The notes beneath the pieces are model-generated. The model was given only the letters and a program-made list of their open reading frames with translations, ran no database searches and was not told the DNA's origin. Source: Escherichia coli (lineage in GTDB: Bacteria; Pseudomonadota; Gammaproteobacteria; Enterobacterales; Enterobacteriaceae). From it: a stretch of 64,000 nucleotides of DNA. A program made the position numbers and the translations under genes. Below, piece by piece: positions 43,999 through 45,301 of the stretch (its first letter is position 1; each line of letters begins with the position of its first letter). Location: the NCBI RefSeq assembly GCF_003018255.1, contig NZ_CP027440.1; one strand, 5' to 3'.

Positions 43999-44790
43999 AT
44001 GAATAAACAATACGAACTGGTTGTTAAAGGGATAAATATTTACCCGGATAAGATTACTGTTACTGTGGCGCTGGAAACGGGTGGGTATACGTCACTGTTG
44101 TTGCCAAATGTGGTGATTGATCTTGATCGTGTTGAAGGTGCCCCGCTGGAGTTTTACGAAGCTGAGGCGAAAAAGAAGGCGAAGCAGTTTTTCATGGATA
44201 TTGCTGCCGGGTTATGTGAAGGGAACGAACCGTTGCCGGAAAAGCGCCTCTGTTCAGAAGAGCGGTATACCATACAAATTAACAATGCATATAACACGAT
44301 ACAGTCAGAAAAAGATGATATCGAATCACGCATTGAAAAACTGGAGAACAGCGTCGTTGAACTGAATAAAAAACTGTCGGTGCAGATCCCTTCCGAAGGT
44401 GAAAAAAAACGCCGTGATGAGCAGTTCGCGGCGTTTTACGATTATTGCCGGAAAGTGATGAGCAGAAATCTCGCAGAGTGTTTCCGTATTCAAAAAAACA
44501 GAGAGCGCTCTGCAAATAGTGAGATTCTGGATAATTTTTTAAAGGGGACGCATCTCGCCAGTGATTGTTTCATTGCTCATTCTTTTGGTGGCTTTCATGA
44601 GGCCATCAAACATGATGTTGAGAGAAGTCCAGGTATCCTCTGTTCCATTCCCGTAAGCATCGAAATAGACACAAATACGATAACCGGTGAACTCGTTACC
44701 GCCGGAGTCGGTATATTCCGTCATGAGGGGAACGATGCCAAAGGTTCCTTTACAAAAATCGGGCCGTTCTTTCTGAAGGTAGAGCGATAG
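43999..44790 (+). CDS. hypothetical protein (gene A of insert between holin and endolysin); 3' end uncertain
   Basis: ATG 4 nt after holin stop with GGGAGAG RBS; low-GC; predicted coiled coil; ORF remains open through the convergent gene. Confidence 0.45.
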   Translation: MNKQYELVVKGINIYPDKITVTVALETGGYTSLLLPNVVIDLDRVEGAPLEFYEAEAKKKAKQFFMDIAAGLCEGNEPLPEKRLCSEERYTIQINNAYNTIQSEKDDIESRIEKLENSVVELNKKLSVQIPSEGEKKRRDEQFAAFYDYCRKVMSRNLAECFRIQKNRERSANSEILDNFLKGTHLASDCFIAHSFGGFHEAIKHDVERSPGILCSIPVSIEIDTNTITGELVTAGVGIFRHEGNDAKGSFTKIGPFFLKVER

Positions 44791-45171
44791 TTTGTTAAGT
44801 ACCCATCCGACAGCTCGCTCATTTTGGTTTATTTTCGTATCGCGAAACAAAAATTCGAAGCGGCCAGATGACGCATGGGTGCAACCAAATACCGGGGCGT
44901 ATTCATCAACCTTTGGTGTTCCTGAAAACATGCAGTCCGTGCTCTCGAATGCAGATGAATTGCTGTTGATCCACTTAACAAAAGAAAAAAAGGTCTGAAT
45001 CGCTTGTCTGTCTGAATATTCAACAAAATCCTCAAGGTGTGTCTCGATCAGTTCCGGGTGTTTACGAAAGTCATAATATTGACCGGGACGATATTTATGA
45101 GTGGTTGTTTTATCCCATGGTTGTGCTCTGCGTCCCTGTAAACGGAGGTCTGCCGCTGGATAGATAAGCAT
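44539..45171 (-). CDS. hypothetical protein (gene B of insert between holin and endolysin)
   Basis: Minus-strand ORF; ATG at 45169-45171 preceded by AGGAG; about 210 aa; no recognised domain; low-GC. Confidence 0.5.
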   Translation of the reverse strand: MLIYPAADLRLQGRRAQPWDKTTTHKYRPGQYYDFRKHPELIETHLEDFVEYSDRQAIQTFFSFVKWINSNSSAFESTDCMFSGTPKVDEYAPVFGCTHASSGRFEFLFRDTKINQNERAVGWVLNKLSLYLQKERPDFCKGTFGIVPLMTEYTDSGGNEFTGYRICVYFDAYGNGTEDTWTSLNIMFDGLMKATKRMSNETITGEMRPL

Positions 45172-45301
45172 AAGTAATCTCCTGGTGGAATGTAATCCAC
45201 GATCATCCGGGGAAATTAAGAACCCGCCAGTGCCCACCACTGGTGGGGTGAAGGCTTAACATATCCAGGGATTCGGAACCGATAAATCCTGATAAATATC
45301 C

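Follow-up and report, generated by a model that had tools for sequence, protein, structure and literature searches.

We analysed a stretch of 64,000 nucleotides (nt) of Escherichia coli DNA (NCBI RefSeq assembly GCF_003018255.1, contig NZ_CP027440.1), called here the window, and within it a segment that lies between the holin gene (S) and the endolysin gene (R) of a lambdoid prophage resembling the Shiga toxin (Stx) phages. The segment carries two convergent open reading frames (ORFs), gene A on the plus strand and gene B on the minus strand, which an earlier note on this DNA had taken together as a possible accessory module. Our data are best explained if the insert is two independent things, a late gene (A) and a moron cassette (B). 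Gene A is, by homology, an ordinary late-operon gene of the DUF1327/YdfR family, a frequent occupant of the S-R gap in Stx-like lambdoid phages. Gene B is a real protein under purifying selection, and is a stand-alone moron that travels independently of A. We hold this anatomy, and the independence of the two genes, with high confidence. Coordinates are collected in Table 1.

The reality of gene B was established from its relatives. In a search of 5.8 billion proteins, full-length homologues of 209-220 amino acids (aa) aligned end to end with B at 65% identity in Salmonella and at 52-53% identity in Yersinia and in a metagenome. When B was compared with the Salmonella and Yersinia genes, the proportion of nonsynonymous differences (pN) was 0.20-0.29 and that of synonymous differences (pS) 0.67-0.79, with a ratio of substitution rates (dN/dS) of approximately 0.15-0.19 where this could be computed. 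A profile search of 1.84 billion cluster representatives recovered 252 relatives at an expectation value (E) <= 1e-3, of which 187 were found at E <= 1e-10; almost all of these are 200-230 aa long and stand alone, every named one is titled 'hypothetical', and the family spans Enterobacterales, Pseudomonas, and soil Acidobacteria. Because full-length homologues exist, pN is far below pS, and the family has 252 representatives, we conclude that B is a genuine protein that selection has maintained. The B frame ends with a stop codon at 44539-44541 and could begin either at the ATG at 45171 (210 aa) or at an upstream GTG at 45240 (233 aa); since the homologues align from the ATG, 210 aa is the true length.

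The predicted B protein has an isoelectric point of 5.8 and is soluble, with no hydrophobic segment. Near-invariant positions in the family are R15, P18, Y32, F35, P39, I42, L46, E47, D48, F49, F61, N69, S73, E76, D79, R104, R110, N115, and G174. Neither B nor 89 family members matched Pfam, B and other family members gave no match in PHROGs or NCBIfam, and a sequence-profile search of the PDB with B was empty. An AlphaFold2 model built on an 89-sequence alignment was confident (predicted local distance difference test, pLDDT, 94.7; predicted template modelling score, pTM, 0.91) and has a four-stranded antiparallel sheet and helices, with an ordered arm at the N terminus and a long helix at the C terminus. 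A Foldseek search of AFDB50 returned only uncharacterised proteins from Proteobacteria and Acidobacteria, with no informative neighbour. One metagenomic member of the family, P0125 (277 aa), has a signal peptide at its N terminus together with the beginning of a staphylococcal-nuclease-like domain (VTDGDT...RLEGMDAPE), perhaps through fusion to an adjacent nuclease gene during gene calling.

The limits of the B cassette were determined by comparison with phages lacking it. Phage PhiR12_1, which is without B, aligns to window positions 43741-44448 and 45226-45850. Because this alignment resumes at 45226 and homology to A stops at nt 44499, the B-specific DNA can be placed at approximately 44500-45225; the whole cassette covers approximately 44488-45301, or about 0.8 kb. 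The G+C content of the cassette is 0.447, compared to 0.53-0.54 for S and R, and that of the A/B segment (43999-45240, about 1.3 kb) is 0.445 (44.5%), compared to 0.542 for the holin gene, 0.534 for the endolysin gene, and 0.503 for the whole window. These values agree with the earlier description of an insert of lower G+C content that splits S from R, and we regard this insert as foreign. The ORF layout given there was likewise found as described, with A directly after the holin stop and a convergent B of 210 aa preceded by AGGAG. As extra DNA of deviant base composition between otherwise adjacent genes, the B cassette fits, in these two respects, the moron in the sense of Hendrix and Juhala.

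Read on the minus strand, the cassette would comprise a promoter-like region, a 5' hairpin leader, a Shine-Dalgarno sequence, an ORF of 210 codons, and a terminator-like hairpin. The candidate -10 element is TATGTT (45263-45258), with a weak -35 element, TTTATC or TTATCG, near 45286-45280. In each of the ten distinct leader variants that we read, a TAnnnT hexamer precedes TTCAG by 5-6 nt, and the Salmonella B genes show the order TTGnnn, 17-18 nt, TAnnnT, 5 nt, and then TTCAG with the hairpin. The window copy reads TTCAC followed by the hairpin CCAGTG-GTGGG-CACTGG, together 45252-45226; the leader hairpin has an 8-bp stem with compensatory changes at two pairs. The AGGAG Shine-Dalgarno sequence (45183-45179) lies 7 nt before the ATG, and in the predicted fold of the leader it pairs with an upstream stretch, with a z-score of -1.5 that is not significant. 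At the other end of the cassette, the stem of the terminator-like hairpin (44513..44498) is followed by seven T residues, and the end of A homology (about residue 167, nt 44499) coincides with this T-run. Alignment of the Salmonella B loci revealed a G+C hairpin with a T-run at the matching position.

Gene A could be assigned by its domain content. Pfam DUF1327 (PF07041) matches residues 1-96 with E 1.5e-33, over positions 1-90 of the 93 in the model. The statement in the earlier note that neither protein has a recognised motif thus applies to B and fails for A. The first 99 residues of A are 38% identical to YdfR of E. coli K-12 (E 3e-20), and the gene order essQ-ydfR-rrrQ in the K-12 Qin prophage, that is holin-YdfR-lysozyme, places YdfR in the same slot as A. 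In K-12, residues 1-72 of YdfR are reported to bind the catalytic N-terminal half of RNase E, and YdfR to co-purify with RNA (PMC13232886). A shares with YdfR the DUF1327 domain and the slot between holin and lysozyme, but has in addition a helical stretch of about 70 residues (phrog_2091 type) and a 96-residue read-through tail that is unrelated. The profiles phrog_2091 and phrog_1085 match A over residues 1-168/171 only. By tblastn, matches to A beyond residue 167 are confined to records that carry B, with all others ending at or before residue 167. RefSeq treats A as a pseudogene, 'DUF1327 domain-containing protein, missing C-terminus'.

The two frames overlap by 252 bp (44539-44790), confirming the open stretch of about 250 bp seen in the earlier note, which had left the choice between an unclear boundary and real antisense overlap. 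The second of these is not upheld: the last 96 or so codons of A are best read as a shadow ORF, a read-through from A, and the overlap as belonging to B. The codons of A lie in exact register with those of B on the opposite strand, so a stop in the A frame requires a TTA, CTA, or TCA codon in B. None of these occurs in the last 82 codons of B, nor in the last 81-97 codons of six of seven B homologues, which come from five genera (loci L004, L011, L012, L014, and L017 among them). The antisense frame is also free of stops in Yersinia, Hafnia, Pseudomonas, and Salmonella homologues that have no A upstream, and the open frame is therefore a by-product of the B sequence. With the arrival of the B cassette, A would have been displaced at its 3' end and would have lost its own stop codon, its frame then running for about 96 codons through B antisense to a chance stop.

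An alternative is that the 263-aa A is a functional fusion, and that A and B form an overlapping pair under dual coding constraint. That 82 codons stay open has a probability of about 0.09 at the codon frequencies of B, and the recurrence of the open frame in six of the seven homologues could be taken in the same sense. Openness where A is missing upstream makes it a property of B, the tail (44500-44790) has no homologue among phage genomes outside the records carrying B, as judged by tblastn, and RefSeq regards A as truncated; we consider a functional fusion highly doubtful. The open frame is nonetheless more consistent across the homologues than the overall codon usage of B predicts (about 0.09 per gene), which is probably a composition effect. 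We also examined a frameshift at the run of seven A residues at 44492-44498 as the origin of the long A; this predicts a product of 173 or 180 aa and was unsupported over replacement by the cassette. GenBank records of Stx phages annotate the 263-aa ORF of A and omit B, and B is also unannotated by RefSeq/PGAP in the B-carrying E. coli locus that we inspected in detail (NZ_AP018808.1, L020). The shadow ORF thus appears to mask a real gene in annotation.

To the treatment of A and B as a module, which the earlier note favoured, the distribution of the two genes lends no support. B is present in eight of 366 phage records that have this S/R pair, and tblastn searches of 50,697 phage genomes with B and with its Pseudomonas homologue found the same eight Stx-phage records only. 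A-like genes without B were found by tblastn in approximately 96-100 phage records, and the K-12 Qin prophage is a further instance. Conversely, B homologues occur in about eleven other contexts, where we found neither a DUF1327 neighbour nor any recurrent partner gene. In three Stx2a phages, 48 nt stand in frame in place of the DUF1327 domain of A, and B is kept at 100% identity; because of these, we conclude that B-carrying phages do not require an intact A.

These observations bear directly on the possibility that A and B are a two-gene functional module, such as a toxin/antitoxin, defence/counter-defence, or abortive-infection pair whose overlap couples expression. In all eight phage records A and B are adjacent and convergent (the 131 E. 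coli genomes with B, described below, were left out of the check for A), the phage phi80 defence gene tai and its antagonist ati, which lie on opposite strands, provide a precedent (PMC11364771), and in other phages a DUF1327 gene is accompanied by another gene on the opposite strand, for example one encoding DUF1823. With B never beside a DUF1327 gene in about eleven other contexts, DUF1327 genes common without B, B maintained next to an A deleted for its domain, and the overlap attributable to a shadow ORF, we judge such a module to be very improbable.

To survey the gap between S and R, we took 60 records at even spacing from the 366 phage records that carry this holin/endolysin pair; both genes were visible in 52. 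Of these, 38 have S directly next to R, over a span of 750-754 bp, and so the earlier note was right that they normally lie side by side. A YdfR-family gene of about 0.4 kb occupies the gap in ten records (span about 1.15 kb), a DUF1327 gene together with an opposite-strand DUF1823 gene in one, two other hypothetical genes in one, and the A+B insert in two. Because the sampled records show several different gap contents, the S-R gap is a variable slot, and the version containing B is rare. Among complete E. coli genomes, the full B stretch was found in 131 of 5,426, all copies being at least 99% identical, and a search for related loci with a seven-sequence B alignment returned mostly identical E. 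coli copies.

Elsewhere the B family occupies a variety of settings. In Yersinia enterocolitica and Hafnia, B separates the lambda-type tail genes I and J, and in two Salmonella prophages it lies between Q and the holin gene, in each case on the opposite strand; in one of these Salmonella loci the Kiwa genes KwaA and KwaB are about 3 kb away on the strand of B. A third Salmonella locus has B in a prophage remnant beside the virulence moron sodC. The Pseudomonas gene, also encoded on the opposite strand, belongs to a moron island within a tail cluster, with a HEPN AbiU2 gene nearby. In one genome (L109 6119-7597) a B-family gene follows a CI-like Peptidase_S24 repressor gene on the same strand at a distance of 28 nt. 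In soil metagenomes, one contig has a B-family gene beside an IS1595 transposase and one island has such a gene with an integrase, PIN/MazE pairs, and a RelA/SpoT-like gene; on another contig it is near a gene for an Mrr-type nuclease. Across seven prophage settings B runs opposite to a late or tail operon, the one other prophage position being the place behind the repressor gene. These positions agree with the earlier proposal of an opposite-strand accessory gene and would suit an accessory or defence gene expressed in the lysogen.

The same comparison addresses whether B might be an accessory of the lysis cassette that tunes the action of holin and endolysin or the timing of lysis. Such a role would account for its location between S and R in the window, where a B transcript would be antisense to the S-A-R late mRNA. 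B is encoded on the strand opposite to the late operon, its homologues are found in tail clusters, in an immunity region, and in non-phage elements, and it is missing from 50 of the 52 sampled relatives showing both S and R, all of which leave a role in lysis with next to no likelihood.

The 5' portion of the B cassette is shared with other prophages (loci L003 2476-2586, L052, and L053-L108 among them). The hairpin motif occurs once in the window, where none is expected by chance, and in 60 IMG/VR viral contigs, where the gene that follows it is B or one of at least 11 unrelated cargo ORFs of 58-104 aa. The distance from hairpin to cargo is 29-54 nt, and 48-54 nt for all except the DUF1823 cargo. 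When ten of the cargo ORFs were scanned, eight belonged to separate PHROGs of unknown function and two had no PHROG match. The piece 45226-45301 is also found 5' of other minus-strand cargo in the S-R gap, namely the DUF1823 gene of PhiR12_1 and a 104-aa ORF in Stx2_12E129_yecE. Leader cassettes are located in the S-R gap or in tail clusters beside tape-measure, gpL-like, and gpK-like genes (as judged by ORF size and sequence), and are always antisense to the late or tail operon. In many copies the leader also has another conserved segment in common, AGGAGGGATGGCTGATTACCTCT...TAAGGA. Rfam has no family that matches the leader, as tested with the window and four canonical copies, and RefSeq has nothing annotated over this element. 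In phage BP-4795 there is no minus-strand cargo and only the promoter-like piece and the left half of the hairpin remain, which looks like a scar. The hairpin may serve as an mRNA-stabilising 5' stem, as part of a translational switch, or as a recombination boundary.

The genomic positions of B suggest how it might be used. We propose that a promoter of its own drives transcription of B in the lysogen, and that during lytic growth the Q-antiterminated late transcript would run head-on through B, leading to mutually exclusive expression as in a noncontiguous operon. B would then be a soluble, single-protein lysogenic-conversion factor, most likely shielding the lysogen against superinfection by other phages, whether it binds a component of the phage or the host or has a small-molecule or enzymatic activity; a candidate site is the conserved polar cluster E47, D48, E76, D79, R104, R110, and N115. 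We consider expression of B in the lysogen probable, as judged from its signals. An anti-phage function is the likeliest role, though one to which we would give somewhat less than an even chance, and the chain as a whole, from the anatomy of A and B to a protective B, seems to us slightly favoured.

A potential concern with this proposal is that several results weigh against it. A strict scan for the sigma-70 consensus found no promoter in 43600-45900, and the E. coli -35 element is weak. The claim in the earlier note that B is an accessory gene with its own expression signals is borne out for the ribosome-binding site; the conserved promoter-like leader and the terminator-like hairpin are candidate signals of this kind, and the strict promoter scan gave none. 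The stem of the terminator-like hairpin is only 6 bp, weak by itself. The near identity of the 131 E. coli copies provides no signal of selection within the species. One member of the family (L110) lies among ordinary metabolic genes, so that the family is not exclusive to mobile elements. No PADLOC defence-family model matches B or nine other family members, and the anti-phage role is based on guilt by genomic position alone. A PADLOC comparison had been suggested in the earlier note for both proteins, and no system protein model in PADLOC-DB v2.0.0 (a 2023 library that does not cover later systems) matched A, B, or 10 further proteins.

B could instead be a lysogenic-conversion or host-modulating factor that acts outside phage defence, for instance in metabolism, stress tolerance, counter-defence, or anti-restriction for the prophage. 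The lack of a matching defence model and the member found among metabolic genes would be consistent with such a role, as would the Salmonella copy next to sodC, and the conservation of acidic residues and arginines points to a ligand-binding or enzymatic site more than to simple binding. Arguing in the other direction are the classic positions for exclusion and defence genes that the family occupies, these being 3' of cI, between Q and S near Kiwa, and in a tail moron island with AbiU2; furthermore, its occurrence in soil Acidobacteria and Pseudomonas argues against a role specific to animal hosts. On balance we view a non-defence function as a serious possibility but a rather unlikely one, and retain protection of the lysogen as the preferred reading.

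The locus can be compared with known systems. Members of the TaiEcA (tail assembly inhibition) family occupy varied moron slots of lambdoid prophages, and that of phi80 is a single gene for a protein of 204 aa with its own promoter, placed in opposite orientation inside the Q-dependent late operon; its product is made in the lysogen and is reduced upon Q expression (PMC11364771). TaiEcA and B are thus both proteins of about 200 aa whose opposite-strand genes interrupt a Q-dependent late operon, a likeness of architecture and not of membership. Tested as a Tai homologue, B gave a BLASTP E of 3.2 and an hhalign probability of 0.1% with an 89-sequence profile, and no partner resembling the Ati protein (AtiEcA) was identified for it. 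B was also rejected as Tab, which at 83 aa is too small, as GiPD474, which carries an ATPase domain, and as TerI, which is a Listeria system. The logic of the noncontiguous operon has been shown experimentally for phi80 tai (PMC11364771) and for tha/ith of the Staphylococcus aureus phage 80alpha (PMC11087260). With the Tha-Ith noncontiguous operon, or excludon, the B locus would again share its architecture, as predicted from the sequence.

A further comparison is with the classical exclusion genes. In lambda, rexAB is transcribed together with the repressor gene and specifies a two-protein membrane system (Rex), while gp15 of HK97 is a membrane protein encoded by a prophage exclusion moron. 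The B-family gene that follows the CI-like repressor holds a place like that of rexAB, and other members are found in tail-cluster moron slots. Unlike the membrane proteins Rex and gp15, B is soluble and would act alone, and we know of no homology between B and either of them.

Table 1. Features of the S-R region and its surroundings (window coordinates unless stated otherwise).
Feature	Position	Strand	Remarks
NanS-p-type esterase	41138-43102		followed by small ORFs, upstream of holin
Holin, 71 aa, class II / S21-like	43780..43995	+	from ORF list and RefSeq naming in related loci
Gene A, full ORF, 263 aa	43999-44790	+	ATG 3 nt past holin stop
Gene A, conserved part, residues 1-167	43999..44499	+	DUF1327/YdfR domain (1-96) and helical extension
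Gene A variant with DUF1327 replaced	Stx2_499 locus L002 2800-3285 = window 44004-44357		
Gene A, read-through tail, residues ~168-263	44500..44790	+	probable shadow ORF antisense to B
Terminator-like hairpin and T-run	44488..44513	-	from scan; 26 nt past B stop; left cassette end
Gene B, 210 aa, 24.3 kDa	44539..45171	-	uncharacterised family; homologues in Salmonella, Yersinia
B-specific part of 5' leader, 54 nt	45172..45225	-	contains Shine-Dalgarno; aligns with Salmonella B leaders
Conserved hairpin TTCAsCCCrCCAGTG-loop-CACTGGC	45226..45252	-	predicted 5' end of B transcript
Promoter-like region for B	45253..45301	-	back to back with endolysin start codon
Endolysin/lysozyme, 177 aa	45302..45835	+	N-terminal hydrophobic signal-arrest-release (SAR)-type segment

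The equivalent holin is named 'class II holin family protein' by RefSeq in related E. coli loci, and the counterparts of the endolysin are labelled 'lysozyme' or 'phage endolysin' in matching records; the SAR-type segment of the endolysin, MNTKIKYGLSAAVLALIAAGAPAP, was judged by eye from its sequence. An Ant-like gene and Rz are the next genes after the lysozyme gene. Just 5' of the holin gene, within the late operon, is a strong terminator-like hairpin (13 pairs and a T-run) at 43712-43741 on the plus strand, beyond which transcription would require Q antitermination. A match to the model for Esr41, a small RNA of enterohaemorrhagic E. coli, at 43104-43177 on the minus strand is full-length but weak (25 bits compared to a gathering score of 102; E 0.086), and is probably chance or a distant relative. 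No stx gene was found among the ORFs checked at the usual stx position of Stx phages (window 36984-39273). This position holds tRNA-Met and tRNA-Arg (36984-37145), a 142-aa ORF (37424-37852) matching the C-terminal domain of TolA with E 3e-29, and an AraC-family YdeO/GadX-like regulator (38548-39273). Colicins or filamentous phages might be drawn to this prophage-borne copy of TolA domain III as a decoy.

Prophage moron slots are now the main source of new anti-phage systems. The B family is new to Pfam, PHROGs, NCBIfam, and PADLOC, and the gene has been missed in the E. coli loci inspected, which are mainly Shiga toxin-producing E. coli from people and cattle. In its widest form, our proposal is that the B family represents new and widespread single-protein soluble anti-phage or exclusion factors, with a fold that has no solved relative, delivered by a portable cassette of promoter, TTCAGCCCGCCAGTG...CACTGGC hairpin, and structured leader that enterobacterial prophages reuse to place at least 11 unrelated cargo genes antisense in late and tail operons, the hairpin or leader serving as a regulatory or recombination handle common to a class of lysogen-expressed morons; we offer this tentatively, and expect that not all of it will hold. 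B is short, soluble, and single-acting, with a confident model, which makes it cheap to test; if it proves to be without a phenotype, the locus would be one more moron of unknown function. A set of lysogen-expressed cargo genes of enterobacterial prophages can be sought by way of the promoter-hairpin leader, and the B locus provides a test case for antisense control, of the noncontiguous-operon type, inside a lysis cassette.

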